Below are positions 13,479 to 41,670 of a stretch of DNA of 64,000 bases, in pieces. Position numbers and translations under genes: made by a program. The notes under the pieces were generated by a model. It saw only the letters and a list, made by a program, of their open reading frames with translations, was not told where the DNA came from and ran no database searches. Each line of letters opens with the position of its first letter. Position 1 is the first letter of the stretch. Location: the NCBI GenBank assembly GCA_020632415.1, contig JACKFO010000002.1, positions 776,413-840,412 on the forward strand, in the 5' to 3' direction. The stretch is from Candidatus Nomurabacteria bacterium (GTDB lineage: Bacteria > Patescibacteriota > Patescibacteriia > UBA1558 > GWA2-36-10).

Positions 13479-13572
13479 TTTTTGTTCCTCCTGCTTGTGA
13501 ACAATTTACCATTAAAGTATAGCTTTAATTTTTTAATTAGCCAAGATCAAAACTTTGGGTTATAATGTTTTT

Positions 13573-15624
13573 ATGTCAAAAATAGATTTTCAAAAAGAAT
13601 TGAATTCTGAACAATATAGAGCAGTCACTGCTCCTGATGGACCACATTTAATTTTGGCTGGTGCAGGGTCTGGTAAGACTCGTACTTTAGTTTATCGAGT
13701 GGCCTATTTAATCGAGCAGGGCGTAAAACCAGAGAAGATTTTGCTTTTAACTTTTACCAACAAAGCAGCTAATGAAATGATGTCTCGGGTAGCGGAACTT
13801 TTGCATTGGCAGGACAAAAATAAATTACCAATTTGGGGCGGAACTTTTCATAGTATTGCTAATCGTCTTTTAAGATTTTATGGCGCTAAGATTGGAATTC
13901 AAAATAATTTTAATATTTTAGACGAAGATGACGCCAAATCGCTTTTAAAAAATATTATCTCTGAGTTTTTTGGTCATTTAGCTGCCAATCGTCGACCTAA
14001 TGCTAGTCTAGCTAAAGAGCTAATTAGCTTTTCAATTAATTCACGGATTAGCTTAGCCGAAGCTTTGGAAATCAAATTTTCTGAGTGGCAAAATTTTTTG
14101 GAGTTATTTGAAAAAGTAGCAGCAGAGTATCAAAAAAGAAAAAAATTATCCAATGTTTTGGATTTTGATGATCTTTTGCTCTATTGGAAAATCTTAACTG
14201 AAGATTCTGAAATGCAAAAAATATTTGACCAGAAATGGCAGTATGTTTTGGTTGATGAATATCAGGATACAAATACTTTGCAGGCGGAAATTATATTTAA
14301 TTTAAGTAAAAACCATCAAAATATTTTGGTGGTCGGCGATGATGCGCAGAGCATCTATTCTTTTCGAGCAGCAAATATTCAAAATATTTTGGATTTTCCA
14401 AAGGTTTTTCCTCGGGCTACAGTTTATAAACTAGAGACCAACTATCGTTCGACCCCAGAGATCTTAGCTTTGGCCAATGAAATCATCGCCTTAAATACTA
14501 ACCAGTTTGCTAAAAATTTACAGGCAATTTTGACAAGTTATGTGAAACCAGAGTTAATTGCTTTGGAAAATAATTTACGAGAAGCAAAGTGGATTGCTGA
14601 TCGGATCGAGGCTTTGATTGCCGAAGGAGTTCCAGCAATAGAGATCGTTGTCTTATTTAGAGCTTCTCATCATTCACAAAGTTTAGAAATGGAATTAAAT
14701 CGTCGAGGGATTGCTTATCAAATGCGTGGCGGTTTAAGATTTTTTGATCGAGCACACATCAAAGATATTTTGGCTTGGCTAAAAGTTTTGACCAACACTA
14801 AAGATGAAGTGGCTTGGGCGAGAATTTTAAATTTATATCCTGGGATTGGCCCTGCTACTGCTCAAAAAATATACGCTCAGGTTTCTGGTTTAGAAAGTTT
14901 AGAAAATATTGATCAAGTAGCTTTTAATCTAGGAAGTAAAGCTCAAACTTCTTGGCAACAAATTTCTCAGGTCATGACTAGTCTCTTCCGTCAGCAAAAA
15001 GCTAATCCAGCAGAGCTGATTAGAATGCTGATCAAAGAGTATCAAGAATATTTGACAGCTCAATATCCAGATTATCGTCAACGAAGTGAAGATTTGGAGC
15101 AGTTAGCTATTTTTTCTTCGTCCTATCAGGACCTGAATGCTTTTTTGAGTGAGATAACTTTACAAGAAAAATTTAATGCCGACGATGGACATGACCAAGA
15201 GGCAATAATTTTAAGTACAATTCATCAAGCTAAGGGTCTGGAATGGCAAGCAGTTTTTTTGATGAATTTAACCAACAAATCTTTACCGCATCCTTTAGCT
15301 GTTTCTGAAACAGAGCAAGAAGAAGAAAGAAGATTGTTTTATGTGGCAGTCACTCGGGCTAAAAAACATTTGTATTTAACTTACCCAATGTCACAATTTT
15401 CTTATGATGGATACAAGAGTTTAACAGCTTCGCCATTTGTTTCCCAGTTGGCCACTACTTTTTTAAATTATAATCATTTGGCAAGATCTACAATGACTAC
15501 TGAAAGTGATGATACGGAATATTCTTTTGAAGACACAGCAGGGGATTTTTGGGAAGAAGACACAAAACATCCGCGTCAGAAAATAAAACCAGGAGATTTT
15601 TTACCAGATATTGAAGATTGGTAG
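13573..15624 (+). CDS. UvrD/PcrA-family ATP-dependent DNA helicase
   Basis: Motif I AGAGSGKT, DEYQDTN (motif II), helicase motifs III-VI, acidic C-terminal tail. The ATG at 13573 lies only about 7 nt after a TATAAT box (13561-13566), suggesting a leaderless transcript. Confidence 0.88.
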   Translation: MSKIDFQKELNSEQYRAVTAPDGPHLILAGAGSGKTRTLVYRVAYLIEQGVKPEKILLLTFTNKAANEMMSRVAELLHWQDKNKLPIWGGTFHSIANRLLRFYGAKIGIQNNFNILDEDDAKSLLKNIISEFFGHLAANRRPNASLAKELISFSINSRISLAEALEIKFSEWQNFLELFEKVAAEYQKRKKLSNVLDFDDLLLYWKILTEDSEMQKIFDQKWQYVLVDEYQDTNTLQAEIIFNLSKNHQNILVVGDDAQSIYSFRAANIQNILDFPKVFPRATVYKLETNYRSTPEILALANEIIALNTNQFAKNLQAILTSYVKPELIALENNLREAKWIADRIEALIAEGVPAIEIVVLFRASHHSQSLEMELNRRGIAYQMRGGLRFFDRAHIKDILAWLKVLTNTKDEVAWARILNLYPGIGPATAQKIYAQVSGLESLENIDQVAFNLGSKAQTSWQQISQVMTSLFRQQKANPAELIRMLIKEYQEYLTAQYPDYRQRSEDLEQLAIFSSSYQDLNAFLSEITLQEKFNADDGHDQEAIILSTIHQAKGLEWQAVFLMNLTNKSLPHPLAVSETEQEEERRLFYVAVTRAKKHLYLTYPMSQFSYDGYKSLTASPFVSQLATTFLNYNHLARSTMTTESDDTEYSFEDTAGDFWEEDTKHPRQKIKPGDFLPDIEDW

Positions 15625-15689: not shown

Positions 15690-18600
15690 ATGAAACATTT
15701 TAAGCTAATTGAAGATACTCTAAAAAATCGAATGATTGTCAGTATTCTGGCGATCTTTGTTTTGTCTTTGTTTAATGTTTGGTTTAGTTATCGTGGTCAA
15801 ATTGCCGTACATGCTGCTTTAGCTCATCAAATTTTTTATATTGATAATCAATTGTCAGGAGAATGTTTGAACTACGTGACGTCTACGAGAACTTGTGGCG
15901 CTTCTTCTGGTATCAGAGCTTGGTCTGATTTAAGTGACGGCTTGAAAGCTATAAAAGATTTGCAAAGCAACGGGACGATTGAACTCGGAGGGCATAATAT
16001 TTATATTCGATCTGGTAAATATTATGATCGAGTAGTTGATTGGCCTTATGGCGCCAATGATAATAAGCGCAATTTTATTAGTGGGTACAATAACGAAATT
16101 CCTGTAATTTCTGGAGCTAAAATATTGTCTAATTGGAGTAGCGAAGGCAATGACATTTACAGTACCACAGATTTAAGTGGAACCAATTATTATCTAGATG
16201 TCAGAGATATTTATCAAGATGATGTTCGACTTACAGAAGCAGAATATCCAAACAATGGAGCTTACTACACCATTGATGATCGTGGTGATGGCACTTACAT
16301 TGAAGATACGGAATTAATTGCTTTGTATAATCAAAATCCAGATTTAGTTTTGGATGCAACTGTTGAATTTTTAGGTCGTGATCTGTATGGTGAGCGTTTT
16401 AAGATTCAGTCTGTTGATTTAAATACAAATAGAGCTTATTTTTATCCCGACAATACTATCGGCTCCGCTCCTTATCCAAATGCAATTTATCATTTGGTTG
16501 GAAAATTAGATTTTCTTGACCAGGCCGGAGAATTTTATTATCAAGTAAGTGCTGATGGAAAAAATGGAGAAGTGGCCTATGTTAAGTTTGCTGCTGGCGA
16601 TAACCCAAATGGTCATTTAATGGAGGTCCCCGATCAAGAAATTTTTCATTTTGGTTATGGCTCTACTCGGCCAGCTTACTATTTGACGGTTTCAAATTTG
16701 GAATTAAAAAATGCTACGCAGGGAGTTTATTTTCAGGGAGAAAGAGATTATATTGCTACTTATGGCAATGATTTTGTTCACCATATCACACTAGATAATA
16801 TAAATAGTCATGATCACGCTCGTTTTGGTTTTATTTTAGGCGGCAATGTCCATCATGTTATTGTTAAAAACAGCAAAGCAGAAAACAATAATGCTGCTGG
16901 CTTCTATTTTCTTGGTTTTTATAAACCGGTTTGTGGTGATGGTAGACTTGATAACTGGACCATTGGTCCAGAATACCAAACTAATCCTGAGCAATGTGAC
17001 GATGGAAATTTGATAGATGGCGATGGTTGTTCATCGACCTGTGGTTTAACGCCTGGATATAATGCCTTGGCCGTGGAGCCCTGGAATGATTATTTTAAAA
17101 GCTATATCACGATTGATAATAATATTATTAGAAATAATAAATCAAACGGCATTTCATTTTCTTATTTAGCAGAAGGAATTATTAGCAATAATACTTTAGA
17201 GTACAATGGAGCGCATTCGGTTAATTCTGGCATTGGTACACAACGTGGATCAGATAATCAGATTTTTGGAAATTCTATTAGCTATCAGGGCGGTAATGGT
17301 ATTTTGATCGAAGGCGGTGTTGATGAAAAAGCTCAAAGATTTGATATTCATGATAATGTCATTCACTATAGTGCCTATAATGTTGATCCACATATTTCCG
17401 CTTATTTTGGAATTTGGTTAGATGAAGCTAATGAAAATAATGTCTATAATAATACTTTTTATGCGGAAAATGGTCGTGGATTTGCTTTGGGCGGAGGAGA
17501 TAATAACAAAATAGTTTATAATAAATTTTTGGATATTTTTGGCGGTGTCTCAGATGAAGAAAATCGTTATGCTTGGTCTGGCTATCTTTATGAAGGTGAA
17601 GGTGAGAGTTTGAAAAATAATATTATTGCTCACAATATTTTTACTGGTAAATTTAATGTTGGCATTTACATGAAGCCAGCAAGCGTAAATGGTTCTGGTA
17701 CCATTGTTAATAATCTGATGGCTAATAACATTTTTTATTCTAGTCGTTCAGATAAAGTGCAGATGAATGATTTGTCGCCAAATATTAATCATTCTATTAA
17801 TACTTACAACAATAATTTGTATTATGCGCCAAATTCAAGTAACGTAGTTTATAATTATCAAGATGTAGATTATTCAAGCTTAAGTTCTTTTCGATCGGCT
17901 TCTTCTCAAGAATCACTTTCTCTCCAAACCAATCCATTGTTTACTAATTTCTCTCAAGAAAACTTTACTCTCCAGTCTAACTCTCCAGCTATTGACCAAG
18001 GAATGTTAATCAGTGGAGTAAACACCAATAACTTCCAAGGTTTTGCTCCAGACATTGGACCTTTAGAATATGCCTCAGGGCCTACTTGTTCCAACTCCAT
18101 CCTAGAAAGTGGAGAAACCTGTGACGATGGAAACCTTAACAATGGCGATGGTTGTTCCTCAAGTTGCCAGATAGAACAAGAAACCCCACCGCCAGCTTCA
18201 TGTACAGACAATATCCAAAATGGTAATGAAACAGGAATAGACTGTGGAGGTTCATGCCCTGCTTGTGACAACGGAGGAGGAAACCCTCTACCACCTCCAC
18301 CAGAGAACCCACCAATAGTATGTGGTAACTCCATCACAGAAAGTGGAGAAACTTGTGACGATGGTAATACAAACAATGGCGATGGATGTTCCTACCTCTG
18401 TCAAATAGAAGAAGACAATCAAGCGACATCAACCACCAACTCAATTAATGTTTTAAAAGCTCAAGGCTTTCTAGCCAAAGCGCCTAACGACCCTAGGGTA
18501 TATTACATTAACCAAGAAAGTAAAAGATATTACATCCCTAACCTTACTACTTTCTACACTTGGTTTAACAACTTTAACTCTCTTCAAGTCATTGACCAAG

Positions 18601-19034
18601 TTACTTTAAATAATAGCTATCCATACGAAGGAAGACTTACTGTTAAACCAGGTAATCTAGTTAAATTCCAAGACTCTAACAAAGTCTATGCAATAGAACC
18701 AGAAAAAACCCTAAGATGGATTACAAGTGGCAATATCTTCTCTGACTTTGGTTATGACTTTAATAAAATCATCCATCTTCCTCAAGAAGACTTTAGTTAC
18801 TACACAATAGGAGAAAACATTACTACTTCAGATATTCACCCTAGTGGACAATTATTAAAGCATGGTTCTTACCCTCAAGTCTTCTATGTTCAAGACGGTA
18901 TAGAATACTGGATCAAAGACCAAAACACTTTCTTATCTCTAGGCTTTAAATGGCAAGATATTATTACCATCCCAGTCAGATACTGGTATACTAGAATCCT
19001 AGATAACTTAAGCTTTAAGTTGAAGGATTGGTAG
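15690..19034 (+). CDS. Giant secreted/surface protein: N-terminal TM/signal anchor, right-handed parallel beta-helix (PbH1) repeats, three Myxococcus-type cysteine-rich repeats (C..DDGN..GDGCS..C), Pro-rich linker, three copies of a C-terminal about 50-aa repeat module
   Basis: N-terminal hydrophobic segment; repeated NN.I..N...GI beta-helix turns; CDDGNLIDGDGCSSTC, CDDGNLNNGDGCSSSC and CDDGNTNNGDGCSYLC repeats; PLPPPPENPP linker; C-terminal VY..W/YI..F..G..W motif repeats. Confidence 0.8.
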   Translation: MKHFKLIEDTLKNRMIVSILAIFVLSLFNVWFSYRGQIAVHAALAHQIFYIDNQLSGECLNYVTSTRTCGASSGIRAWSDLSDGLKAIKDLQSNGTIELGGHNIYIRSGKYYDRVVDWPYGANDNKRNFISGYNNEIPVISGAKILSNWSSEGNDIYSTTDLSGTNYYLDVRDIYQDDVRLTEAEYPNNGAYYTIDDRGDGTYIEDTELIALYNQNPDLVLDATVEFLGRDLYGERFKIQSVDLNTNRAYFYPDNTIGSAPYPNAIYHLVGKLDFLDQAGEFYYQVSADGKNGEVAYVKFAAGDNPNGHLMEVPDQEIFHFGYGSTRPAYYLTVSNLELKNATQGVYFQGERDYIATYGNDFVHHITLDNINSHDHARFGFILGGNVHHVIVKNSKAENNNAAGFYFLGFYKPVCGDGRLDNWTIGPEYQTNPEQCDDGNLIDGDGCSSTCGLTPGYNALAVEPWNDYFKSYITIDNNIIRNNKSNGISFSYLAEGIISNNTLEYNGAHSVNSGIGTQRGSDNQIFGNSISYQGGNGILIEGGVDEKAQRFDIHDNVIHYSAYNVDPHISAYFGIWLDEANENNVYNNTFYAENGRGFALGGGDNNKIVYNKFLDIFGGVSDEENRYAWSGYLYEGEGESLKNNIIAHNIFTGKFNVGIYMKPASVNGSGTIVNNLMANNIFYSSRSDKVQMNDLSPNINHSINTYNNNLYYAPNSSNVVYNYQDVDYSSLSSFRSASSQESLSLQTNPLFTNFSQENFTLQSNSPAIDQGMLISGVNTNNFQGFAPDIGPLEYASGPTCSNSILESGETCDDGNLNNGDGCSSSCQIEQETPPPASCTDNIQNGNETGIDCGGSCPACDNGGGNPLPPPPENPPIVCGNSITESGETCDDGNTNNGDGCSYLCQIEEDNQATSTTNSINVLKAQGFLAKAPNDPRVYYINQESKRYYIPNLTTFYTWFNNFNSLQVIDQVTLNNSYPYEGRLTVKPGNLVKFQDSNKVYAIEPEKTLRWITSGNIFSDFGYDFNKIIHLPQEDFSYYTIGENITTSDIHPSGQLLKHGSYPQVFYVQDGIEYWIKDQNTFLSLGFKWQDIITIPVRYWYTRILDNLSFKLKDW

Positions 19035-19055: not shown

Positions 19056-19841
19056 ATGAAAAAAGATATTATAGTTTTAGATTTAGAAACTAAAAAAACA
19101 TTTGATGAAGTAGGCGGTCACCAAAATCAACACCTTTTGGGCGTTTCTTTGGTTGGGGTTTATTCTTATAATTTAGATAAATATCGTGGCTTCAAAGAAG
19201 AGGAATTCGCTGAACTTTTAGAGTTATTAAAAAATGCTGGACTAGTGATCGGTTTTAATAGTAAGTTTTTTGATTTTCCAGTTTTACAGCCTTATTATAA
19301 AGATTTTGATTTAAGCACGATTCCACATTTAGACATTATGGAAGAGGTTGTTCATGCTTTAGGACATCGTTTAAAATTAGAATCAGTTGCTCAAAGTACT
19401 TTGGGTTATGGAAAATCAGGTTCAGGACTTGATGCTATTGTTTATTATCGAAACAATGACTGGGAAAAATTGATTAAATATTGTTTAGATGATGTCAAAG
19501 TTACCAAAGAAATCTATGATTATGGTTTGAAACACGGAAATATTTGGTACCATAATTCTGGTTTAAAAACCTCGATTGTTGCTCGTTGGTTTGATCAAAA
19601 AGAAACGCCAATTCGTGAAATAGTAGAGAAAGCTTTTGCTGCTGGAGAACAATTAGAAATTGATTATATTGACGAAGGCGGTCAAGTGACCAAAAGAAAA
19701 ATTGACATTCAAGCAATTAAGGGAAACAAAGTAAAAGCTTTTTGTCATTTACGCGATGCTTTGAGAGTATTTGAAATTGATCGAATCAAAGATGCTAAAA
19801 TAGTCGGGCAAATGAAAAGTTTTCAAAGTAGTTTGTTATAG
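19056..19841 (+). CDS. DEDD-type 3'-5' exonuclease (RNase H-like fold) fused to a C-terminal WYL-like ligand-binding domain
   Basis: Exo I IVLDLET, Exo II GFNSKFFDFPVL, Exo III YCLDDVKVTKEIYDY; C-terminal segment EIDYIDEGGQVTKRKI...AFCHLRDALRVFEIDRIKDAKIV fits the WYL domain consensus (Y..g..t.R.i.P....a.C.lr...R.F.ldRI). Confidence 0.6.
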   Translation: MKKDIIVLDLETKKTFDEVGGHQNQHLLGVSLVGVYSYNLDKYRGFKEEEFAELLELLKNAGLVIGFNSKFFDFPVLQPYYKDFDLSTIPHLDIMEEVVHALGHRLKLESVAQSTLGYGKSGSGLDAIVYYRNNDWEKLIKYCLDDVKVTKEIYDYGLKHGNIWYHNSGLKTSIVARWFDQKETPIREIVEKAFAAGEQLEIDYIDEGGQVTKRKIDIQAIKGNKVKAFCHLRDALRVFEIDRIKDAKIVGQMKSFQSSLL

Positions 19842-19862: not shown

Positions 19863-19893
19863 TAAAAAATCGTGTTAAGCACGATTTTTTTTA
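19863..19893. terminator. Bidirectional terminator between the exonuclease-WYL gene and convergent folD; the folD stop codon lies in the loop
   Basis: A-run, atcgtg-ttaag-cacgat hairpin, T-run. Confidence 0.5.
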
Positions 19894-21990: not shown

Positions 21991-23613
21991 TTATTTCAAA
22001 GTTTTAGTCACATAAGTGCCTTCTAGCTCATAGCCTAGTTTACGGTAATAATTTCTAACGCCAATTCCAGAAATAACAGCGACTTTATCTAAGCCTTGTT
22101 CTAAAGTAATGCGTTCAGCTTCGGCCATTAATCTTTTGCCTAAACCTAAATGTTGAGTGTTAGAAATGGCACCATTTTCATCATCAGTTTCGTCATTGGT
22201 TGCCGGAATCATTTTTCCATAGACATGAAGTTCACGAACTAAAGAGGCGTTTTTAAGTTCTGGAAAAATATTTTTTTCAGGCTGTTCGTTAATTCGTAAA
22301 CGCAAAAAAGCATAAACTTTAGTGTGTTCTTTATTTTCAAAACTCAAAAACCATTCCTTGCCTTCTGAGGCGTTGTATTGTCTTTTGACTAATTCAATTT
22401 GTTTGATATCAAATTCTTCACCTTTGACTTCACGACAACGTAGACAGCGACAAGATAAATTTTGTCTTTTTAATTCATTTTGCAAATATTGTCTGAGGTT
22501 AGTGATTTTGTTTCCAGCGATAATACTTTCTTCTGGAATATCTCGAATCAAACGATTGATTCTCATGTAAGGGGGAACGATTTTTTTGACAGCCAGTAAT
22601 AAATCTAATAATTCTTTTTCCGAATAAGGCTGATAGCGACCCTCTTCGTACCATTTATTTAGTTCAGCAAATTCATTGACTACGCAAGGATAAATTTTTA
22701 ATTGATCTGGTTGTAAGTCTGGAGAGTTAAAAACATATTCAAACATTTCATAATCTTTTTCTGGAGTGGAACCTGGTAAATCTGGCATATAGTGGTGATC
22801 AACCTTAAATCCAGCGTCTTTAAGCAGACGAGTGGCAATAATTGATTGTTCTATATTATGTCCACGTTTGATTAAGTCTAAAATTTGGTTATCCGTATGT
22901 TGGACTCCAAGCTGGACACGAGTGCAGCCTAAATTTCTTAATTTTTTAACTTCAGTTTCTGAAATAAAATCAGGACGAGTCTCCAAAGTGAGGCCAATGA
23001 TTTTGTACGTTGTGTCTTCATTTATTTTTTGTTCAGCAGCCAAGTTTTTCTTTTCACGTTTTTGCCCATCGCCATAGGTATTGGCAGCATAAAATAAGTC
23101 ACGAATGAAATCATGTTGGTAATGGTCAGGGTAAACAGACCAAGTGCCACCCAAAACTAAAATTTCAATTTTGTCTACTAAGTGGCCATTGTTTTCTAAG
23201 GCCTTGATTCGCATATTTACCTGTCGTTCAGCGTCAAATAAGTTCATCTTAGCTCGCATGGCCGCTGGCTCATTAGACAAATAGCTTTTAGGCATATCAG
23301 GTTCAGTTGGACAATAGACACATTTTCCCGGACAAACAAAAGGTTTGGTCAAAACAGTAATCACTGAAACACCAGATAAGGTACGAACAGCTCGTTTGGT
23401 TAAGAGTTGACTAAATTTTTGGTCTTCTTTGATCTTGCCCTCTTTTACCAATTGACGATAAGTAGAAATTAGGTTAGCTTTAGTGGTAGGCGCGAGCTTG
23501 TGTTGAGAAAAGACTTGTCTCAAAGCCTTAATAAATTCCAACTCACTAGCATATTTAGTATTTGCTAGTTCTAAAACAATATTTTCTAATAATTTTTTTT
23601 CAATATCCGCCAT
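21991..23613 (-). CDS. elp3: Elp3-family radical SAM / GNAT tRNA wobble-uridine modification enzyme (tRNA carboxymethyluridine synthase homolog)
   Basis: Radical-SAM cysteine motif FVCPGKCVYCP, extended Elp3 radical SAM domain, C-terminal GNAT acetyltransferase fold (GLGKRLMAEAERI...KLGYELEG). Confidence 0.85.
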   Translation of the reverse strand: MADIEKKLLENIVLELANTKYASELEFIKALRQVFSQHKLAPTTKANLISTYRQLVKEGKIKEDQKFSQLLTKRAVRTLSGVSVITVLTKPFVCPGKCVYCPTEPDMPKSYLSNEPAAMRAKMNLFDAERQVNMRIKALENNGHLVDKIEILVLGGTWSVYPDHYQHDFIRDLFYAANTYGDGQKREKKNLAAEQKINEDTTYKIIGLTLETRPDFISETEVKKLRNLGCTRVQLGVQHTDNQILDLIKRGHNIEQSIIATRLLKDAGFKVDHHYMPDLPGSTPEKDYEMFEYVFNSPDLQPDQLKIYPCVVNEFAELNKWYEEGRYQPYSEKELLDLLLAVKKIVPPYMRINRLIRDIPEESIIAGNKITNLRQYLQNELKRQNLSCRCLRCREVKGEEFDIKQIELVKRQYNASEGKEWFLSFENKEHTKVYAFLRLRINEQPEKNIFPELKNASLVRELHVYGKMIPATNDETDDENGAISNTQHLGLGKRLMAEAERITLEQGLDKVAVISGIGVRNYYRKLGYELEGTYVTKTLK

Positions 23614-31767: not shown

Positions 31768-33690
31768 TTAGACTTCGATTACTACCGGTAAAATCATTGG
31801 TCGACGTTTTGTTTTTTGTAGGACAAATTGACCAACATCATTTCTTAATTTATCTTTTAAGAAATTTTCTTCAATACTAGTTTTGGTAGTATTACATTCA
31901 TTGACTACTTTTTTTACTTTAGCTCGAATTTCTTCGACCACTTCTTTGTTTTCTTTCATGTAGATAAAACCACGAGAAATAATATCAGGAGAGCTGACTA
32001 ATTTGCCGTTTTTACGAGAAATTGTTGCAATCACTACAACCATGCCATCTTCAGCCATCATTTGACGATCGCGTAAAACAACATTGGAAACATCGCCGAT
32101 ACCTAGACCATCAACAAAGACGTAGTCAGTATCTGCTTTTTGTTTAGCAACTTCTAAGCCATTACGATCAAATTCAATGATCATGCCATTTTCTGGCACA
32201 GCAATTTGTTTGTTTTTAAAGTTTAGACTCTGAGCAATTTTTGCTGATTCTTTTAGCATATAATGGTAGGCATAAACTGGAATAAAGTAATCCGGCTTGA
32301 TAGTTTTAAGCATGTGAACAATATCATTTCGATTACCATGACCAGAAACATGAATGTCCATTAATTCGCCGTGAACAACGTTGTCGCATTGACGATATAA
32401 ACCATCTTTTAACCTTTGGATTGTATTTTCATTACCAGGAATAATTGAAGAAGATAAAACTACAGTATCAGATTTTTTGAGTTTTACTTGACGATGGGCA
32501 CCAGAAATAATTCTTGATAAAACAGCATTACCTTCGCCTTGAGCTCCGGTGGCAATGATCAATAATTTATCATCAGGATAATTATGAATTTGATCAATCT
32601 TGATAATAGTTTCTTTTTTGGTTTTGATATAGCCAAGTTCTTTAGCTAATTCAATATTCATTTTCATGCTGTAGCCATCAAGGGCGATTTTTTTACCCAA
32701 AGCTTCAGCTTGAGCGATGATCCAGCCAATTCTCTCAATTTGAGAAGCAAAGGTTCCGATGATTAGACGGCCAGGTGCTTGGGAGATCAATTTGTTTAAA
32801 TTGTCTTTCATCACCTGATGATTGGCAGATGGCCTGACATCAATTGCGCCTAAACTTTCAAGCATTAAGACACTTGGTCTTTTGATTTTGCTCAAGTGAG
32901 CGTAGTCCAAGATTGGTTTACCAGTTTGGTCTCTTTCCAAAGTCCAGTCACCAGGATGAATTATGCTTCCTTGAGGAGTTTCGATGATTACGCCCACGGC
33001 ATCCATAATCGAATGTTCCATCTGAAAAAATTTGATTGTAAATTGTCCAAATTTAAATTGATCGCTGATGCTTTTGATCAAAAGAGCTTTTAGATTTTTG
33101 GAACTATTTTTTTTGTAATCTTCAACTTTGTGTTTGACCATCGCTAAAGTTAGAGGACGACCAACGATCGTTGGATTGCCAAGTTTTTCTAAAAGAATTG
33201 GGGCAGCGCCAATATGGTCCAAATGACCATGAGAAAAAATAACTGCTTTAATATTTTTTTCTTTACCTTTTAGGTAAGAAGTATTAGGAATAATATAGTC
33301 AATGCCATGCATGTCTTCTTCTGGGAATTGTAATCCCATATCAATAATGACAATGTCATTACCATATTCAAAAACAGTCATATTACGACCAACTTCTTCA
33401 CAGCCACCCAAAGGAATGATGCGTAGTTTATTTTTAGCAATTGTTCCACCAGGTCTTTTGATCCAAGGTTTAGAATTTGGTTTGTTATTTTGTTTTTTAT
33501 TGTTAGCGGGCGTTTGTGGCCTGCTATTTTGGCTAGTAACTTTAGTATTTTTGTTTGTACTTTCAGTAGTAGCTTTCTTTCTTTGATTTTGACGATAGTT
33601 TTTTGTAGGCCTTTGAGGCTTAGTGTTTGTGGTTTTTGAATTAGAACCACCAGACAACAGACTATCTGTCGTGTCTTGTACTCTTTTCAT
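31768..33690 (-). CDS. rnj: Ribonuclease J (MBL / beta-CASP) with a roughly 70-aa basic low-complexity N-terminal extension
   Basis: HGHLDHIGA zinc motif, beta-CASP and C-terminal domains; N-terminus rich in K/N/T/Q/R/P. Start placed at the ATG at 33690 to avoid overlapping the upstream gene. Confidence 0.85.
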   Translation of the reverse strand: MKRVQDTTDSLLSGGSNSKTTNTKPQRPTKNYRQNQRKKATTESTNKNTKVTSQNSRPQTPANNKKQNNKPNSKPWIKRPGGTIAKNKLRIIPLGGCEEVGRNMTVFEYGNDIVIIDMGLQFPEEDMHGIDYIIPNTSYLKGKEKNIKAVIFSHGHLDHIGAAPILLEKLGNPTIVGRPLTLAMVKHKVEDYKKNSSKNLKALLIKSISDQFKFGQFTIKFFQMEHSIMDAVGVIIETPQGSIIHPGDWTLERDQTGKPILDYAHLSKIKRPSVLMLESLGAIDVRPSANHQVMKDNLNKLISQAPGRLIIGTFASQIERIGWIIAQAEALGKKIALDGYSMKMNIELAKELGYIKTKKETIIKIDQIHNYPDDKLLIIATGAQGEGNAVLSRIISGAHRQVKLKKSDTVVLSSSIIPGNENTIQRLKDGLYRQCDNVVHGELMDIHVSGHGNRNDIVHMLKTIKPDYFIPVYAYHYMLKESAKIAQSLNFKNKQIAVPENGMIIEFDRNGLEVAKQKADTDYVFVDGLGIGDVSNVVLRDRQMMAEDGMVVVIATISRKNGKLVSSPDIISRGFIYMKENKEVVEEIRAKVKKVVNECNTTKTSIEENFLKDKLRNDVGQFVLQKTKRRPMILPVVIEV

Positions 33691-33721
33691 AACGTTTGTT
33701 AAGTTTTTTAGTTTGTTAATT

Positions 33722-35521
33722 TTAATTAAGTTTTCTCTTGGTTTTGATATACCAGGAGTTAATATTTGAGAACCTATCTGCTGGTAAATTAACAAAATTT
33801 AGATTATCCAAACCTTGTAGTTTTTTACCAACGGGATAAGTGTAAGTTGGATTATATAAAAAAATAGCAAAATGTAATTCTAGTAATTTATTTTGAAAAG
33901 CTTTAAATAATTTTTCTTTCTCCTCGTCATTTTGACTTTGACGAATGTCTTCTAAATATTTATCAATATCTTTGTTTGATAAAATGCTTAAGTTTAGTCC
34001 AGGATTTTTGGTTTGAGAAGAATGCCAAAATGGATATGGTCCAGAATTGATATTGATAATTTCTCCATAAACTAAGACTTCGTAATCTCTGGTTTCGATT
34101 ACATCGCTACGCATTTTATTTTTTGCAACAATCTGTAATTCGGTTTGAATTCCAATATTTTCCCAAAGTTCTTTGATGATGGAAACAGCTTTGACATTTT
34201 CTGGCTGATCAACGGTGGTTAATTTTAAGCTCAGAGTTTTGTCATCTTTTTGGCGAAATTGAGAACCTTCGGTTTTTTTCCAGCCTAGCTCATCTAAGAT
34301 TTTTTCAGCAGCACTAGGATTAAACTTAATGTCTTCTATTTCAGAATCATAGCCAAAAGACTCTGGTAAAATAGGGGAATGAATTACTTGGCCGTCATTA
34401 TTGATCGCTTCACTTAAAATTCTATTTTTATCAACGTCTAGAGCTAAAGCGGTTCGGAAGTCCAAGTTCTTTAATAAATCATTTTTTTCAGGGTTGAAAA
34501 AAACAGCGGTATATTGTGGTGAGTGCAGGCTTTTGAAAACAACGTCTTTGTTTTTTATTACATCTTTGTAGCTTTTTGGTAGATAGATCAAACCATCGAT
34601 GTTTTTGTTTTGCAAAGCAGCGGCAGCTACTTCAAAGTCAGGATAAAATTTTAAAGTTAGTTGGTCGATGTAAGCCTGTCCTAGGTGGTAAGCGTCATAA
34701 GACTCTAAAACATAGTTTTTAATATTTCCACTAGCTTCTTTGGTCAAAGATTTAAATTTGTAAGGTCCAGATCCAATTGGCTTTTTGTTTAATTCAGCAA
34801 GCTGAGCGCCAAAGTCTGGGATGCTGTACCAAAGATGAGCTGGCAAAATACCAACGGTCAAAATAGACAAGAAAGGAGCAAAGGGCTGATCCAAAACAAA
34901 TTGGACTGTTTTATCGTTGACGCGGTTAACACTGACGCCATTAAAACTGCTTCTTAGTGGACTTTTAAATTCGGGATTTTTTATTTTTTCAATGGTAAAG
35001 ATAATATCATCAGCAAGTAGTTCTGTACCATCGTGCCAGAAAAGATTGTCTCTTAGCTCAAAGGTATAAACTTTTTGTTCGGCATCAATAGTGTAGCTAG
35101 CTGCTAAATCAGGGACTACGTTGCCTTGCTCGTCAAATTTCATTAATCCAGAATAAATCAAACGAACCAAATCACGATCAACATCAGAAGTGGCAAGCAG
35201 AGGATTAATCAAGTTTGGTACGCCAATTAAACCTTCGCTGTAAGAGCCACCAAAGTCTGGTGCGGGACTAGAATTTTGCCAATAAAGATTGCTTCCCAAA
35301 AAAAAGATGGCTAAAATTAAAATCAGTGTAGTCAGGCCAAAATGAACCTTCTCTTTTTTATTAAGAATTTTTGAAAGTTGTTTAAATTGAGTCCAGCTAG
35401 GAACTTTTTTTTGATTGAGCTGAGAGATTAACTGGTGATTAATATCTCGTGGTTCTTTTTCAATCAAGAGAGGCTTAATTTTACTGAACAATTTTTTATT
35501 TAATTGCCAAAAAGCAGCCAA
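33722..35521 (-). CDS. ABC transporter substrate-binding protein, family 5 (oligopeptide/nickel type), N-terminally membrane-anchored
   Basis: 599 aa, N-terminal TM helix, overall SBP_bac_5 architecture. Confidence 0.7.
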   Translation of the reverse strand: MAAFWQLNKKLFSKIKPLLIEKEPRDINHQLISQLNQKKVPSWTQFKQLSKILNKKEKVHFGLTTLILILAIFFLGSNLYWQNSSPAPDFGGSYSEGLIGVPNLINPLLATSDVDRDLVRLIYSGLMKFDEQGNVVPDLAASYTIDAEQKVYTFELRDNLFWHDGTELLADDIIFTIEKIKNPEFKSPLRSSFNGVSVNRVNDKTVQFVLDQPFAPFLSILTVGILPAHLWYSIPDFGAQLAELNKKPIGSGPYKFKSLTKEASGNIKNYVLESYDAYHLGQAYIDQLTLKFYPDFEVAAAALQNKNIDGLIYLPKSYKDVIKNKDVVFKSLHSPQYTAVFFNPEKNDLLKNLDFRTALALDVDKNRILSEAINNDGQVIHSPILPESFGYDSEIEDIKFNPSAAEKILDELGWKKTEGSQFRQKDDKTLSLKLTTVDQPENVKAVSIIKELWENIGIQTELQIVAKNKMRSDVIETRDYEVLVYGEIININSGPYPFWHSSQTKNPGLNLSILSNKDIDKYLEDIRQSQNDEEKEKLFKAFQNKLLELHFAIFLYNPTYTYPVGKKLQGLDNLNFVNLPADRFSNINSWYIKTKRKLN

Positions 35522-35916: not shown

Positions 35917-37512
35917 TTACTGATTTTTTGAGTTTTTTAAGTTTCTGCGATGTGCCTGGCGATAATGTTTGATCCCGAATTTATGAGCTTGATTTCGCAT
36001 ATTTTGGATGAATAAAGATAGCTTTGAATTTTGATCAATTTGTAAAGATTGTTTTTTTCCAGGAATAAAGATCTCTTCTTCCCTTTTGGCCAAAGAAATA
36101 ACTTTTTTTTGCCAAGATTTTTTTAAACTAGGATAAACAGTGTTCAGCTGACCCTTGCCACCATCTAGAATGATCAAATCAGGACTTGGCCACTCAGGGT
36201 GTTTTTGTCGGCGCTCGAGAACCTGTTTTAAAGAAGCGAAATCATCTGGTCCTACTATATTTTTGATTTTAAAAATACGATACTGATCGGCTGCAATTTT
36301 ACCATCAATAAAAACAATCATTGAACCATAAGAAAAGTTTCCTTGAATATTAGAAATATCGTAGACTTCAATTCTCTTCGGTAAATTTTTTAGTTTTAAA
36401 GTTTTTTGTAGTTGGATTAAAATTTCTAGTTTAGAATTATTTAGATTTTTTTGTAAATAATCCTCGGTATTTAATTTAAGTAGCTCTAATAATTTTTTAT
36501 TTTTGCCTTTTTGCGGAACAATATTTTGAATTTGAGAATTTATTAAAATATTTTTTATATCAACTTTAATTGGTGAGATTATTTCTTTTGGCAAATCAGA
36601 GCTTTGACTATAAAATTGTTGCAAGGTGCTTTCTAAGATTTCTTTGATTTTTAGATCAAGTTTGTTGTCAACAATGAAATTAAATTTATCACCTACAGTT
36701 CCGCGTCTGACTTGCAGTAAGCTGATAATTACTTGTTTTTGGAAAATACTAAAATTAATTAAGTCCTGATTAATGTTTTTGGTACTAACAATTTTTTGTT
36801 TTTCTTGTAAACGTTTTAAAGCAAGTATTTGGTTCTTTTTTTTGGCAGCTAGCTCAAATTGTTTTGCCGCGCTAGCCTGAGAAATTTCAGCCAATAGTTT
36901 TTTTTCTAAATCTTTAGTTTCGCCTTTGATGATTTTAACTGCTTCTTTGATTAATTTTTGATATTGATTTTCAGAAATAAATTTTTCACAAGGCCCATCG
37001 CAAAGTCCTAAGTGATACTGTAGACAAACTTTTCCTTTGGGGACAGTTTTCAAATCTCGAAGGCAAGTTCTTAGTGGTAAAATTCGATGTAATAAACGGA
37101 CGATATTTTTGGCGGCCAGAGTAGAAGTGTAAGGGCCGAAATGTTGACCTTTTAGCTTTTCGCGACCATGACTGACAACGATTCGAGGAAAAGCCTGTTC
37201 TGTGATCACAATATAGCCCCAGTTTTTATCATCTTTTAAAACGATGTTGTATTTTGGTTGATGTTTTTTGATTTGCCCAGCTTCAAGTAGCAAGCTTTCT
37301 AATTCGCTATCAACAATCGTGTACTGAATCTTTGTGATTTCAGAGAGCATATTTTGTTTAGCCTCTGTTAGATCATTTACACGTAACCAATACGAATTAA
37401 CTCTTTTTTTGAGATTTTTGGCTTTGCCAATATAAATAATCTTCCCTGTTTTATTGAGGAAAAAATAAATACCTGGTTTTTCTGGGATATTTTTGATATT
37501 GTCAGGAGTCAT
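35917..37512 (-). CDS. uvrC: Excinuclease ABC subunit C
   Basis: N-terminal GIY-YIG domain (PGIYFFLNKTGKIIYIGKAKNLKKRV), UvrBC-interaction region, C-terminal RNase H-like endonuclease and HhH region. Confidence 0.9.
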   Translation of the reverse strand: MTPDNIKNIPEKPGIYFFLNKTGKIIYIGKAKNLKKRVNSYWLRVNDLTEAKQNMLSEITKIQYTIVDSELESLLLEAGQIKKHQPKYNIVLKDDKNWGYIVITEQAFPRIVVSHGREKLKGQHFGPYTSTLAAKNIVRLLHRILPLRTCLRDLKTVPKGKVCLQYHLGLCDGPCEKFISENQYQKLIKEAVKIIKGETKDLEKKLLAEISQASAAKQFELAAKKKNQILALKRLQEKQKIVSTKNINQDLINFSIFQKQVIISLLQVRRGTVGDKFNFIVDNKLDLKIKEILESTLQQFYSQSSDLPKEIISPIKVDIKNILINSQIQNIVPQKGKNKKLLELLKLNTEDYLQKNLNNSKLEILIQLQKTLKLKNLPKRIEVYDISNIQGNFSYGSMIVFIDGKIAADQYRIFKIKNIVGPDDFASLKQVLERRQKHPEWPSPDLIILDGGKGQLNTVYPSLKKSWQKKVISLAKREEEIFIPGKKQSLQIDQNSKLSLFIQNMRNQAHKFGIKHYRQAHRRNLKNSKNQ

Positions 37513-41200: not shown

Positions 41201-41670
41201 ACAGAATTCATATTTTGGTCACCGGCCCAAGTGGTAGGATTAGCAGAAGTATTACCAATGTCTGTTACGGTATTTGGACCAATGGTTGAATTAAAACCAG
41301 CAACAACTTTGTTAGTAGACAGATATTCAATCTGTGCTTCGTCATTAGTAGAGGCCACAGTACTTCTAGAATTAGCGGTAATTGTAGAGCCATCGATACT
41401 TAAGACTTTGCTATATTTTTCATACATCATGATAGCATGAGTAGTGTCTATGGTATCTGTATCAACGTAGGAGATGTTTAGGGTGTCTACTTGAAATTCG
41501 CTGCCAAAGTTGGGGAAAGACAAAGTGTCGACATCAGCAGCTTTGACCCGAGTGTTTAAACTAAAAAAAACAATCATCAAGATTGTAAAAAAAGCAAAAA
41601 ATTTTATTTTTTCAGGATTTTTGTTTAAAAACATTTTTATATCAATAAGGAGTATTTTTGTATTCTTCAT
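38245..41670 (-). CDS. Giant secreted surface protein: signal/anchor, long Thr/Ser/Asn-rich beta region, three fibronectin type III domains, Gly-rich linker, one copy of the C-terminal repeat module shared with the 15690-19034 protein, and a C-terminal peptidoglycan-binding (PGBD-like) domain
   Basis: N-terminal hydrophobic segment; FN3-like W/Y/T periodicity (TVTWTDNSADEDGFII, YRIDYES, TEYYVENI); GGGGG run; C-terminal LQTKLKSLGYFTYPSITGYYGPVTATAVKAFQKANKISPLGYVGPQTRAAL matches the PG_binding_1 consensus. Confidence 0.75.
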   Translation of the reverse strand: MKNTKILLIDIKMFLNKNPEKIKFFAFFTILMIVFFSLNTRVKAADVDTLSFPNFGSEFQVDTLNISYVDTDTIDTTHAIMMYEKYSKVLSIDGSTITANSRSTVASTNDEAQIEYLSTNKVVAGFNSTIGPNTVTDIGNTSANPTTWAGDQNMNSVLPRYIKMKTLDSTHVVYAYADNTNGNVGKVRVGTVGASTITWGTEATFNSGGTYAIGLAVLDSAHFVVTFRDTGDTNNGNAIVGSVSGTTISWATSETTFESGRAYGYMDAAALDSSKFIVVYNDGDNSSISNAIVGSYDGASTLTFGTKAVVSAAGSTFNTVDAIDDSHAILVWTNSSNIANANIATISGNEITLLDSAVAFDTGNIQYPSVTVLDANNFLIGYKDVTHSNYAKAIVGTVSWIVPTTLTQNSFRWYENIDAITPTTAYAAENTNITTVDTLSDEDIVRLRMSVQVGGSQLDAASKTFKLQFGTGGDCSAVSNWQDIGAMASTTAPWRGYDNASVADNATISSLVLSGSDVGGTYEEENNSVANPNIIAVGEDAEWDWVLQGHNFSNQTNYCFRMTESDGTVLDTYTNYPQININNTPADASSVTATYNSDIQITVTWTDNSADEDGFIIQRRDDTGSGWSAYAQIGTAVADATSFVDNAANNAANPPAANERYQYKVIAQNTAGNSSGSEAAASIDTTPGAPTIGTPTVDSSTAITWAWTDNANFEDSYRIDYESAEGTDIDDLDADSESYQATGLTPNTAYSISVNAYHNTRGESSASATSDTVYTLANVPANLTSGSQTNTSITPSWDANSNPSGTEYYVENITSSTNSGWVTDTAKEFTGLTCSTSYTFRVKARNGDSAETAWANSVTIATGDCTSNVNGGGGGVVSPGPTGIGKNSLNINMGQNTNLGNIDSGGTNVMGYIDSSADFAIQISNHNRPISQEHKFKIIDLDLLHNLITIELNSQRQIITLRLEESKNIDLDQDGIEDVNLKFEDLYVNRAEITMTSLLDNTDHASSERLIKYANNPKVYLLKNNQKQWIVDGEAFVALGYRWQDVEIIPDSETYVTGQDIKQTQNTNNYTFKNFLSLGSISEEVRALQTKLKSLGYFTYPSITGYYGPVTATAVKAFQKANKISPLGYVGPQTRAALNSL

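Follow-up and report, generated by a model that had tools for sequence, protein, structure and literature searches.

A conserved Patescibacteria DEDDy 3'-5' exonuclease with a WYL domain and a putative clamp-binding tail: a probable enzyme of DNA repair or replication fidelity

The gene located at positions 19056..19841 (+ strand) of the 64-kb window, the whole stretch of Candidatus Nomurabacteria DNA that was analysed, probably encodes a conserved housekeeping 3'-5' DNA exonuclease of the Patescibacteria (CPR) with a role in repair, in which a DEDDy exonuclease domain is followed by a WYL domain that would bind single-stranded DNA (ssDNA) and by a C-terminal tail that would tether the enzyme to the sliding clamp. 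The occurrence of a nucleic-acid-binding WYL domain and a clamp-binding tail in a conserved housekeeping exonuclease suggests an enzyme of DNA repair or replication fidelity, and not a phage-defence sensor. Patescibacteria possess tiny genomes with a pared-down repair complement, in which a near-universally conserved, uncharacterized nuclease probably makes up an important part of the genome-maintenance machinery.

The 261-aa product, which starts with ATG and ends at the stop codon at 19839-19841 in the ORF list, is identical to protein P0001, annotated as 'ribonuclease H-like domain-containing protein [Candidatus Nomurabacteria bacterium]'; no family for it was found in NCBIfam. A preliminary description of this DNA had delimited the ORF exactly, had proposed that it encodes a DEDD exonuclease fused to a WYL domain, and had named Pfam profiles and structure prediction as means of examining this. 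Both lines of analysis bear the proposal out, in that the RNase_H_2 and WYL profiles each score above their curated thresholds and a confident AlphaFold2 model (pLDDT 92.8, pTM 0.89) gives Foldseek matches to PolB and T7 exonuclease domains and to WYL proteins. These domain matches are far beyond chance expectation.

Homologues of the protein constitute a large family that is confined to the Patescibacteria and shows 39-100% identity over the full length. A word-index search returned 1538 matches, the best 120 of which all have lengths of 257-301 aa (257-278 aa in 118 cases) and identities of 58-100%; identity between candidate phyla among these best matches is 58-86%. Family members are present at at least 449 GTDB species loci and 1962 representatives were retrieved at E<=1e-3; phage and plasmid collections contained no full-length homologue. 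The conservation counts given below are based on 78 family members, and those for residues of the WYL domain on the 67 members that bear it.

The exonuclease domain (19056..19589, + strand; residues 1-178, with a beta-hairpin at its end) is matched by Pfam RNase_H_2 (PF13482) over residues 24-156 with 44.7 bits (cut-off 22) and weakly by DNA_pol_B_exo2, as well as by the PHROG 'DNA polymerase exonuclease subunit' (1.6e-14); no Pfam match to RNase_T was found in the 261-aa protein. Foldseek comparison of the N-terminal part with the PDB identified PolB and T7 polymerase exonuclease domains with a probability of 1.00, among them those of Pfu PolB, Pol epsilon, RB69, and T7, at TMq values of 0.34-0.49 for the 261-aa query, and the model displays an RNase H-like alpha/beta fold of the proofreading-domain type. 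The three motifs that had been quoted in the preliminary description are all found, namely Exo I, D9-L-E11 (D-x-E; 19080..19088), Exo II, N68-S-K-F-F-D73 (N-x3-F-D; 19257..19274), and Exo III, Y142-C-L-D-D146 (Y-x3-D; 19479..19493), each on the + strand. The catalytic residues D9, E11, D73, Y142, and D146 are intact and, like N68, invariant in 78/78 family members; all five are also invariant in a wider alignment (A2), and Exo I is likewise kept in the MrfA-fused and solo relatives described below. The presence of Tyr rather than His at the Exo III general-base position identifies the domain as DEDDy type. In a profile search against PDB sequences, Exo II aligns with the Exo II segment IIGWNVVQFD of Escherichia coli Pol II, and among the closest relatives of known structure are enzymes that degrade oligonucleotides, of the NrnC and diDNase types. 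A loop between Exo II and Exo III, G-K120-S-G-S-G124 (19413..19427, + strand), in which K120 and G124 are invariant in the CPR and MrfA-fused relatives, is a candidate DNA-contact loop.

RNase D and NrnC belong to the DEDDy class, and it is conceivable, albeit decidedly unlikely, that the protein is an RNA-directed 3'-5' exoribonuclease or nanoRNase of the RNase D / NrnC-like kind, with a WYL domain that binds ssRNA and a role in RNA maturation or oligonucleotide turnover where the RNase set is reduced. The PDB profile search did recover a NrnC/diDNase ancestor at E=0.0024 and NrnC at E=0.12, but these matches are weak, and in both structure and profile comparisons the best matches are the proofreading domains of DNA polymerases. 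The 3'-5' exonuclease activity would hence probably be directed at DNA rather than RNA.

The WYL domain (19617..19802, + strand) is matched by Pfam PF13280 over residues 188-249 with 29.3 bits (cut-off 21.8) and by PADLOC WYL models (2.5e-12). In the AlphaFold2 model it is built from one helix and a five-stranded Sm/SH3-like barrel (strands 198-205, 211-222, 225-230, 235-240, and 244-252), and the top Foldseek matches of the C-terminal part in the PDB are PafBC (6sj9), CapW (7tb5), and BrxR (7t8k), with a probability of 1.00. The WYL domain of PafBC was also recovered in the PDB profile search (E=0.0016), and PDB sequence matches comprise PafBC, PafC, CapW, and chains 8bnv/8bns, deposited as 'AAA family ATPase', which we take to be Pif1-type helicases. 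WYL domains are characterized by conserved basic residues and a frequent Cys that line a ligand groove (Makarova et al. 2014, PMC4012209), and this signature is kept in the exonuclease family, in which R214 (46/67), K225 (44/67), C230 (49/67), H231 (57/67), R/K237 (57/67), and R/K243 (58/67) are conserved. The W-Y-L triad itself is replaced, the K225-V/I-K227 region being aligned, across a 2-residue deletion, with the CapW motif RWHVR.

The WYL fold and the basic/Cys signature are thus common to the CPR protein and to PafBC, DriD, CapW/BrxR, and Pif1. Only 9-12 residues follow the barrel, the N-terminus is occupied by the exonuclease domain, and neither a winged HTH nor a WCX is present in the 261-aa protein, which indicates that it is not a transcription factor. 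It is in this respect like bacterial Pif1, in which the WYL domain is carried on a DNA-processing enzyme and not on an HTH regulator (PMC8053095). The WYL ligand in CapW, DriD, and PafBC is ssDNA (PMC11662680), and ssDNA is also given as the ligand for regulators and Pif1 helicases in PMC9186387, PMC11804915, and PMC8053095. Since ssDNA is an established WYL ligand, a role of the domain in binding or sensing the substrate of the exonuclease is a simpler reading than one in sensing a signal for defence, and by analogy it may bind ssDNA. RNA binding has been described for the WYL1 accessory protein of Cas13d (PMC5935466), and one class of WYL-fused exonucleases was labelled "3'->5' exoRNase" by Makarova et al. 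2014 (PMC4012209), both of which are compatible with an RNA substrate; the supplements of the latter paper, looked through for the "3'->5' exoRNase-WYL" architecture, contained nothing useful. Nothing relevant was found in the literature on WYL domains in Patescibacteria or on CPR dnaQ and repair. The WYL domain is missing from 11 of the 78 sequences, two of which are ORFs cut at a contig end, leaving nine or ten complete WYL-less proteins, mostly on contigs labelled Saccharibacteria, Azambacteria, and Doudnabacteria, so that the domain is not essential for the core activity.

The protein ends in F256-Q-S-S-L-L261-COOH (19821..19838, + strand), a putative beta-sliding-clamp-binding motif that is distinguished by its conservation within the family and by its disorder; residues 258-261 have pLDDT <50 in the AlphaFold2 model, and the last block of ten residues averages 68. 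The consensus among the 78 family members is [WFHY]-Q-x-[ST]-L-[FLI], with Q at position -5 in 70/78, L at -2 in 73/78, and F/L/I at -1 in 74/78, and the pattern Q..L[FLI]$ occurs in 67/78 family members vs 1/991 other (control) ORFs. The tail is kept in the WYL-less members too. Neither the tail nor the MrfA-fused homologues had been noticed in the preliminary description. The consensus of the beta-clamp motif is QL(S/D)LF with a C-terminal placement, the Gln being most critical and positions 2-3 tolerating substitutions (PMC11139829), and Q257-S-S-L-L261-COOH fits in having Gln first, two hydrophobic residues last, and a location at the extreme C-terminus. The tail may therefore be predicted from its sequence to dock on the beta sliding clamp (DnaN). 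A polar residue instead of Leu at motif position 2 weakens clamp binding in E. coli peptides (PMC11139829), and this position of the tail is usually polar (N/K/S/G) and not Leu, such that clamp binding may be weak, or specific to the CPR DnaN. Whatever its strength, such a tail would have no rationale on an RNase.

Other stand-alone 3'-5' exonucleases are known in which a clamp-binding motif follows the catalytic domain. The epsilon subunit of E. coli Pol III carries the clamp motif QTSMAF directly after its exonuclease domain (PMC11139829), and mycobacterial DnaQ, an alternative proofreader that binds DnaN and is stimulated by it, has its exonuclease domain extended by a further C-terminal domain and ends in the motif Q[Y/L]ALF (PMC10634781). 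The CPR protein is organized likewise, its clamp binding being predicted, although epsilon and mycobacterial DnaQ are DEDDh enzymes of the RNase_T type that possess no WYL domain, whereas the CPR enzyme is a DEDDy exonuclease of the PolB/RNase_H_2 type. These precedents (PMC11139829, PMC10634781) invite a different reading, which we consider fairly unlikely, whereby the protein is a trans-acting replicative proofreader, a functional analogue of epsilon or of mycobacterial DnaQ that rides on the beta clamp beside the CPR DnaE and excises wrongly incorporated nucleotides from 3' ends during replication, its WYL domain serving to detect the ssDNA template or fraying at the primer end. The retention of the clamp-motif-like tail throughout the CPR clade and the polymerase-proofreading (PolB/T7) structural type of the exonuclease are in keeping with this, as are the very high conservation between candidate phyla (58-86%), expected for a replisome-associated protein, and the JGI name of one homologue, 'DNA polymerase III epsilon subunit-like'; however, no polymerase gene adjoins the exonuclease gene at any of 80 loci. 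It is unlikely that the enzyme represents a missing or alternative proofreader of the Patescibacteria in the form of a clamp-riding, PolB-type DEDDy exonuclease that is activated through its WYL domain on ssDNA or at a frayed primer terminus, although if it did, its WYL domain would be the first to function as an allosteric or substrate sensor in a replisome-associated catalytic enzyme and not in a regulator.

The kinship of the exonuclease domain outside the Patescibacteria points to repair. In other bacteria, a homologous domain (37-44% identity, E ~1e-31) forms the C-terminus of DEAD+Helicase_C+WHD_HRQ1+MZB helicases (MrfA/YprA), and the MrfA-fused domains share the motifs DLET..EVGG, GFN..FD, the G.GKSG.GL loop, and YC..DV with the CPR protein. 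In a neighbour-joining tree the CPR clade forms a branch distinct from the MrfA-associated domains, and the tail is universal in this clade and absent from MrfA-fused and other non-CPR-type members, which end in '...PVxW'. The sequence comparisons thus place the CPR proteins in a domain family common to the MrfA-fused exonucleases, of which they represent a distinct branch. The CPR protein is a stand-alone enzyme with a WYL domain and a clamp-like tail, whereas fused and solo non-CPR forms are devoid of both; the link to a helicase takes the form of physical fusion in the MrfA proteins and of gene adjacency to an SF1 helicase for the CPR gene. A replicative proofreader is disfavoured by the closest homologues outside the CPR, whose fusion partners are repair helicases and not polymerases, and fusion of homologous domains to MrfA DNA-repair helicases likewise argues against an RNase. 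In mitomycin C repair, Bacillus subtilis employs MrfB, a 3'-5' DNA exonuclease with a fold that resembles DEDDy PolB exonucleases (PMC11194089). MrfB differs from the CPR enzyme in being DEDDh (His258) with a C-terminal TPR (PMC11194089), where the latter possesses Tyr142 and a WYL domain, and the solved B. subtilis MrfB was not detected among PDB sequences with either a full-length or an exonuclease-only profile. As there is no profile match to MrfB, homology is claimed only for the MrfA-fused domains and not membership of MrfB.

The genomic contexts of the family are also those of housekeeping genes. A conserved block, queA-ychF(-)-UvrD-like helicase-exonuclease gene-folD(-)-glyA(-)-Elp3-like-methyltransferase, is found in ~45 species representatives, and more distant members adjoin xseA/xseB, a PD-(D/E)XK nuclease gene and lexA, or aspS/lgt, or nifS. 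In Kerfeldbacteria-type loci, xseA/xseB are accompanied by a PD-(D/E)XK nuclease gene at -1 and lexA at +1 to +5, and Azambacteria-type loci have xseA at -1. The same-strand upstream neighbour in the largest clade is a UvrD/PcrA/Rep-like SF1A helicase gene (13555..15624, + strand in the window; Pfam UvrD-helicase and UvrD_C), whose product has pcrA as its best NCBIfam match at 483 bits, under the equivalog cut-off of 911. The helicase gene is located at -1 in 31 loci and at -2 in 12 loci (43 together), and uvrA and uvrC are also within the 64-kb window; no MrfA homologue was found in the window or in 80 loci. Some neighbours, namely queA, ychF, and the gene for an Elp3-like tRNA-modification enzyme, are RNA-related and could be thought to favour an RNA substrate, but the neighbours that recur in independent lineages are DNA-repair genes. 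The same neighbours (uvrD-like, xseAB, lexA), being repair and not replication genes, speak against a replicative proofreader as well.

A comparable functional set surrounds exonuclease I. In E. coli, exonuclease I (SbcB) and ExoX are 3'-5' ssDNA exonucleases that degrade the UvrD-displaced strand in mismatch repair, alongside ExoVII (xseAB) and RecJ. ExoI, which is recruited by the SSB tail, possesses next to its DEDD exonuclease domain an SH3-like one that contributes to the enclosure of ssDNA. The neighbours of the CPR gene (UvrD-like helicase, xseAB) mirror this set, although ExoI and ExoX are DEDDh enzymes that are homologous to the CPR DEDDy enzyme at the superfamily level only, and ExoI is recruited via SSB and not via the clamp. 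No Pfam match to ExoI-specific domains was found in the 261-aa protein.

Cooperation of the exonuclease with the UvrD-like helicase appears plausible, although the adjacency of the two genes lies within a larger syntenic block and may reflect shared ancestry and not functional coupling. No terminator is predicted between the helicase gene, the giant gene described below, and the exonuclease gene in the window. Obligate co-transcription is not claimed; the helicase and exonuclease genes are kept apart at locus L004 by a reverse ORF and a hairpin resembling a terminator, and at others by small genes or by the giant gene.

In the favoured reading as a repair exonuclease, the tail would dock in the hydrophobic cleft of DnaN and tether the enzyme at primer-template junctions, gaps, and forks, such that the clamp would bring the exonuclease to a 3' end. 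The WYL domain would engage the adjacent ssDNA substrate or template and thereby position or activate the nuclease, and the DEDDy two-metal site would then remove nucleotides in the 3'->5' direction. This activity might provide the excision step that follows displacement of a damaged or mismatched strand by a helicase, here perhaps the neighbouring UvrD-like one, or it might trim mispaired or blocked 3' ends. If this is correct, the WYL domain would be a DNA-binding or -sensing module of a catalytic repair enzyme, extending the ssDNA sensing known from regulators, and the CPR proteins would constitute a new class of clamp-recruited exonucleases derived from the MrfA-associated ones.

The preliminary description had proposed a stand-alone, ligand-gated anti-phage sensor-nuclease whose WYL domain senses an infection signal and thereby turns on the breakdown of nucleic acids, possibly in a joint system with the giant protein encoded upstream. 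WYL domains are indeed enriched in defence regulators and PADLOC CRISPR-associated and DRT RT-WYL models match the C-terminal domain, but these matches cover the generic WYL domain only. YprA-family helicases also seed the defence systems DISARM, Dpd, and Druantia, although the preprint that reports this places the MrfB-associated/-fused YprA branch in DNA repair (PMC12458937, preprint). No defence genes are present among the annotated ORFs of the 64-kb window, in agreement with the earlier statement that no partner defence genes are nearby, and homologues surveyed for an association with defence islands are situated, essentially uniformly, in housekeeping synteny instead, an outcome that the preliminary description had itself named as grounds for refutation. 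High conservation and such synteny in many CPR lineages are unlike the patchy, fast-turnover distribution of defence genes, and the family is unrepresented at full length in phage and plasmid collections. The genomic context largely refutes the proposed defence nuclease, which is highly improbable. Should the repair reading hold, it would also counsel caution in annotation, since a WYL domain alone does not indicate phage defence.

The upstream gene (15690..19034, + strand) does encode a giant beta-helix surface protein, as had been described, of 1114 aa, with Beta_helix/NosD matches and three cysteine-rich DUF4215/myxo_disulf_rpt repeats. It is co-directional with the exonuclease gene, and the spacing between its stop codon and the exonuclease start is 21 nt and not the 22 nt given earlier. 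Only the window and L005-L008 (5 of ~80 loci) have this gene between those for the helicase and the exonuclease; it is absent from all other loci, including L004, where the exonuclease protein is 85% identical. Its GC content resembles that of the adjacent genes and so gives no indication of a recent transfer. The giant gene represents a lineage-specific insertion shared by a few close relatives and no part of the exonuclease system, and the giant protein was ruled out as a partner of the exonuclease on these grounds.

Downstream, a hairpin with an 11-bp stem (AAAAAATCGTG-CTTAA-CACGATTTTTT; 19864..19890) separates the exonuclease gene from the convergent folD. It was called on the - strand by the scan, where it possesses a T-run, and on the + strand the stem is preceded on its 5' side by an A-run, features that allow it to be read as a putative bidirectional terminator.

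The exonuclease gene at 19056..19841 (+) encodes a 261-aa protein from an ATG start, 21 nt downstream of the stop codon of the 1114-aa gene at 15690..19034. A hairpin called on the minus strand at 19864-19890, 22 nt beyond the end of the gene, is read as a bidirectional terminator common to the exonuclease gene and the convergent folD. All three Exo motifs are found in the sequence (D9-L-E11, N68-SKFF-D73 and Y142-CLD-D146), and in Pfam residues 24-156 score 44.7 bits with RNase_H_2 (PF13482; cut-off 22) and residues 188-249 score 29.3 bits with WYL (PF13280; cut-off 21.8), while DNA_pol_B_exo2 matches below its threshold. The NCBIfam search assigned the protein no family, and its top PHROGs match is 'DNA polymerase exonuclease subunit' (1.6e-14). 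A confident AlphaFold2 model built from 37 homologues (pLDDT 92.8, pTM 0.89; pLDDT <50 for residues 258-261 only) shows an alpha/beta exonuclease domain with a terminal beta-hairpin, then one helix and a five-stranded barrel. In a Foldseek comparison with the PDB, every match having a probability of 1.00, the barrel resembles PafBC, CapW and BrxR, and the N-terminal domain resembles the proofreading domains of four polymerases (Pfu PolB, Pol epsilon, RB69 and T7); a profile search of PDB sequences detected the PafBC WYL domain (E=0.0016) and the Exo II/III segments of E. coli Pol II. The protein belongs to two domain families, DEDDy/RNase_H_2 and WYL, and the two domains named in the preliminary description are confirmed.

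Database protein P0001, annotated 'ribonuclease H-like domain-containing protein [Candidatus Nomurabacteria bacterium]', is the exact protein. A word-indexed search gave 1538 relatives, the best 120 of which measure 257-301 aa (118 at 257-278 aa) and are 58-100% identical over 98-100% of the query; the named proteins among these 120 are all from Patescibacteria/CPR (Nomurabacteria, Komeilibacteria or Parcubacteria). Of the 1962 clusters that the exhaustive representative search returned at E<=1e-3, 119 reached E<=1e-30, and homologues occupy at least 449 loci in GTDB species representatives. Since D9, E11, N68, D73, Y142 and D146 are invariant across 78 aligned members (39-86% identity), the DEDDy exonuclease is intact, and purifying selection on it is strong. 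Many MAGs with the CPR-type block carry the record title 'uncultured Gammaproteobacteria bacterium' (L008, L009, L011, L023 and others; binchicken co-assemblies), and two further records are labelled Aerophobetes (L056) and Myxococcota (L082); these MAG records with the exonuclease locus are likely mislabelled or misbinned.

In the same alignment the last residues are kept even in members lacking the WYL domain, with the consensus [W/F/H/Y]-Q-x-[S/T]-L-[F/L/I]-COOH (Q at -5 in 70/78, L at -2 in 73/78 and F/L/I at -1 in 74/78). WYL-less forms end in HQAALF, QGALF, NYSLF or NLSLF. A Q..L[FLI] ending occurs in 67/78 family members, the exceptions including ORFs cut at contig ends, compared with 1/991 other complete ORFs from the same loci. 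The tail agrees with QL(S/D)LF, the motif by which bacterial proteins bind the beta clamp, and is a putative clamp-binding element, with the caveat that its position 2 is polar rather than Leu. It is also predicted from the model to be disordered, as short linear motifs usually are. Gln is the most critical residue of the clamp motif, substitutions are tolerated at positions 2-3, and the epsilon proofreader uses QTSMAF (PMC11139829). A close architectural precedent is mycobacterial DnaQ: beyond its exonuclease domain it has a further C-terminal domain and, at the C-terminus, a Q[Y/L]ALF motif through which it binds DnaN, and DnaN stimulates its activity (PMC10634781).

Within the WYL domain, Y204, D217, A228, F/Y229, C230, H231, F239 and I244 are conserved in the 67 WYL-bearing members, as are basic positions R214, K225, R/K237 and R/K243. 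Alignment to P. aeruginosa CapW (7tb5) places the conserved K225 and K227 near the RWHVR arginines, although the match is not residue-exact at a two-residue deletion, and aligns R237 with the Arg of the AFRDF segment, which we take to be the third ssDNA-contacting arginine. The conserved positions retain the signature of basic residues and Cys that has been predicted to line a ligand groove in WYL domains (Makarova et al., 2014, PMC4012209). By structures and biochemistry, ssDNA is the WYL ligand of CapW, DriD and PafBC (PMC11662680), and Pif1 helicases have ssDNA-binding WYL domains too (PMC8053095). The sensor role first proposed for the domain is therefore reasonable in kind, but by analogy with these proteins ssDNA, the enzyme's own presumed substrate class, would be the most economical ligand, ahead of a defence signal. 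Assignment to the wHTH-WYL-WCX regulators was rejected, and use of the WYL domain here would be catalytic rather than regulatory. A '3'->5' exoRNase'-WYL fusion is already among the WYL architectures of Makarova et al. (2014, PMC4012209), so the pairing of the two domains was known before, and what is new is its characterisation.

The representative search also found the same exonuclease domain, with 37-44% identity (E about 1e-31) and all signature motifs in common, as the C-terminal part of proteins 920-1180 aa long whose N-terminal parts carry DEAD, Helicase_C, WHD_HRQ1 and MZB (MrfA Zn-binding/DUF1998) domains, which identifies them as MrfA/YprA helicases. The fused forms and many solo forms not of the CPR type stop just past the beta-hairpin ('...PVxW'), without WYL or tail. 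In a rough NJ tree of the exonuclease domain, all tail-bearing CPR sequences fall in one clade separate from these forms, and the WYL-less sequences form two groups and a singleton (L082) nested among WYL-bearing ones; because of these groupings, the CPR clade is defined by the tail, and WYL is an accessory module, found in about 85% of the species sampled. This CPR-wide clade joins an MrfA-type DEDDy exonuclease to a clamp-binding-like tail and, in most members, to a WYL domain. In B. subtilis, mitomycin C repair employs the 3'-5' DNA exonuclease MrfB together with the helicase MrfA (PMC11194089). Identification as MrfB proper was rejected, the CPR protein having none of three features (DEDDh set, TPR domain, MrfA partner), and no MrfA homologue was found in the window or 80 loci. 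Outside the CPR clade, two matches of about 300-313 aa (P0208, P0213) show a further architecture, a SWIM-like zinc finger (C-x-C-PDF...C-K-H) N-terminal to the same exonuclease domain.

Neighbourhoods were compared across 80 GTDB loci by tblastn and clustering of their ORFs. In 31 loci a UvrD-like helicase gene on the same strand occupies position -1, and a further 12 loci have it at -2; the homologues in these helicase-adjacent loci have identities as low as about 55%, with L059 (45%) in addition. Its counterpart in the window, a UvrD/PcrA/Rep-like gene at 13555-15624 (+), scores far under every NCBIfam equivalog cut-off (pcrA 483 bits vs 911) and is for that reason a divergent CPR SF1A helicase. 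A Komeilibacteria genome with a 73% identical protein has the order gyrA-ruvB-queH-queA-x-ychF(-)-UvrD-type helicase-exonuclease-x-folD(-)-glyA(-)-Elp3-like radical SAM(-)-methyltransferase, the window block minus the giant gene. In Kerfeldbacteria-type loci (40-50% identity; assignments backed by Pfam and NCBIfam), xseA, xseB, LCP and PD-(D/E)XK (Cas4/AddB-like) nuclease genes precede the exonuclease gene and a convergent small IMS_HHH protein gene and lexA follow it; Azambacteria-type loci have xseA at -1 and nifS at +1, and in Saccharibacteria-type loci the gene adjoins aspS and lgt. The window further encodes uvrA (42385-45246, +), uvrC (35917-37512, -), RNase J (31768-33795, -), a Pif1-like helicase, dnaG, ftsH and groEL, its nucleotide-excision-repair genes lying <25 kb from the exonuclease gene.

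The best-supported reading, held with moderate confidence, is a 3'-5' DNA exonuclease that serves genome maintenance while tethered to the clamp. Docking of the tail on DnaN would take place at a gap or primer-template junction, the WYL barrel, predicted to pack rigidly on the nuclease, would bind adjacent ssDNA and position or activate the enzyme, and the DEDDy site would then take off 3' nucleotides; that WYL is dispensable in some lineages is a caveat for this mechanism. The recurrent neighbours (UvrD-like helicase, ExoVII, PD-(D/E)XK nuclease, LexA) and the ancestral MrfA-helicase fusion point to helicase-coupled excision, comparable to MrfB with MrfA or to ExoI/ExoX, which work with UvrD, with the reservation that the helicase adjacency sits within a larger syntenic block and is broken in several lineages. 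The proposed working mode would resemble that of clamp-recruited stand-alone exonucleases (mycobacterial DnaQ, epsilon) as well as helicase-partnered repair exonucleases. While the domains, the intact catalytic residues, the conservation of family and tail, the genomic contexts and the MrfA fusions are observed, DNA as the substrate, binding of ssDNA by WYL and of the clamp by the tail, and the helicase partnership are inferred. A replicative proofreader acting in trans is judged unlikely. Among proteins of solved structure, the closest in sequence include NrnC and diDNase enzymes, a caveat for a repair exonuclease; an exoribonuclease or nanoRNase, a reading that the published exoRNase-WYL label also touches, is considered rather improbable.

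The suggestion that the protein is a defence sensor-nuclease is very improbable. Its PADLOC matches are WYL models only, no defence genes occur among the annotated ORFs of the window, and no full-length homologue was found in the phage and plasmid collections. Housekeeping contexts, chosen beforehand as evidence against a defence role, surround the homologues in the 80 GTDB loci and the Komeilibacteria genome, and membership of a recognised defence system was rejected. The giant gene at 15690-19034 (+), once suspected of encoding a partner, encodes a 1114-aa predicted surface protein with an N-terminal TM segment, a right-handed beta-helix (Beta_helix/NosD), three acidic cysteine-rich DUF4215/myxo_disulf_rpt repeats and a Pro-rich linker. 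It separates the exonuclease gene from the helicase gene in the window and loci L005-L008 only, and L004 (85% identical protein) has in its place a spacer of 500 nt that contains a hairpin and a small ORF on the reverse strand; being missing from the conserved block in other loci, this variable insertion, similar in GC content to its neighbours, loses its link to the exonuclease. The defence angle behind the original finding drops out, leaving a conserved enzyme whose proposed role in genome maintenance is testable, in a bacterial radiation that is still little understood.

Several neighbouring genes merit separate mention. The Kerfeldbacteria-type nuclease (cluster c17; L054:5486-6247 (+), also L055, L057, L063, L064, L069 and L071) is a 250-275-aa PD-(D/E)XK protein (PF12705) with weak Cas4/AddB matches and a Cys cluster at its C-terminal side. 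Its gene lies directly 5' of the exonuclease gene and shares its strand, with -14 to 47 nt between the two, an arrangement suggestive of a two-nuclease operon in these lineages. Cluster c14 (L057:8824-9114 (-), also L054, L055, L058, L061-L064, L068, L069 and L071) comprises 83-121-aa proteins with only an IMS-family HhH motif (PF11798), encoded next to lexA and convergent with the exonuclease gene; their hydrophobic tails (e.g., AAQLVSVL or ATQFLSVL) are reminiscent of the Pol IV clamp-binding motif QLVLGL, and they could be mini-proteins derived from the DinB C-terminus. The 540-aa Elp3-like protein encoded at 21991-23613 (-) (Radical_SAM, Radical_SAM_C and weak GNAT), of a kind uncommon in bacteria, is kept in the same syntenic block in many CPR loci. 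A 1141-aa predicted envelope protein (38245-41670, -) with fn3 and a C-terminal peptidoglycan-binding domain (PG_binding_1) is the second very large one of the window. The 134-aa ORF with a TTG start at 56214-56618 (+) overlaps the tRNA-Ser(GGA) gene at 56216-56305 and is probably spurious. The Pif1-like SF1B helicase encoded at 56688-58322 (+) has a C-terminal HTH_40 domain, at the position equivalent to which PDB chains 8bnv and 8bns ('AAA family ATPase'), presumably Pif1-type helicases, carry a WYL domain.
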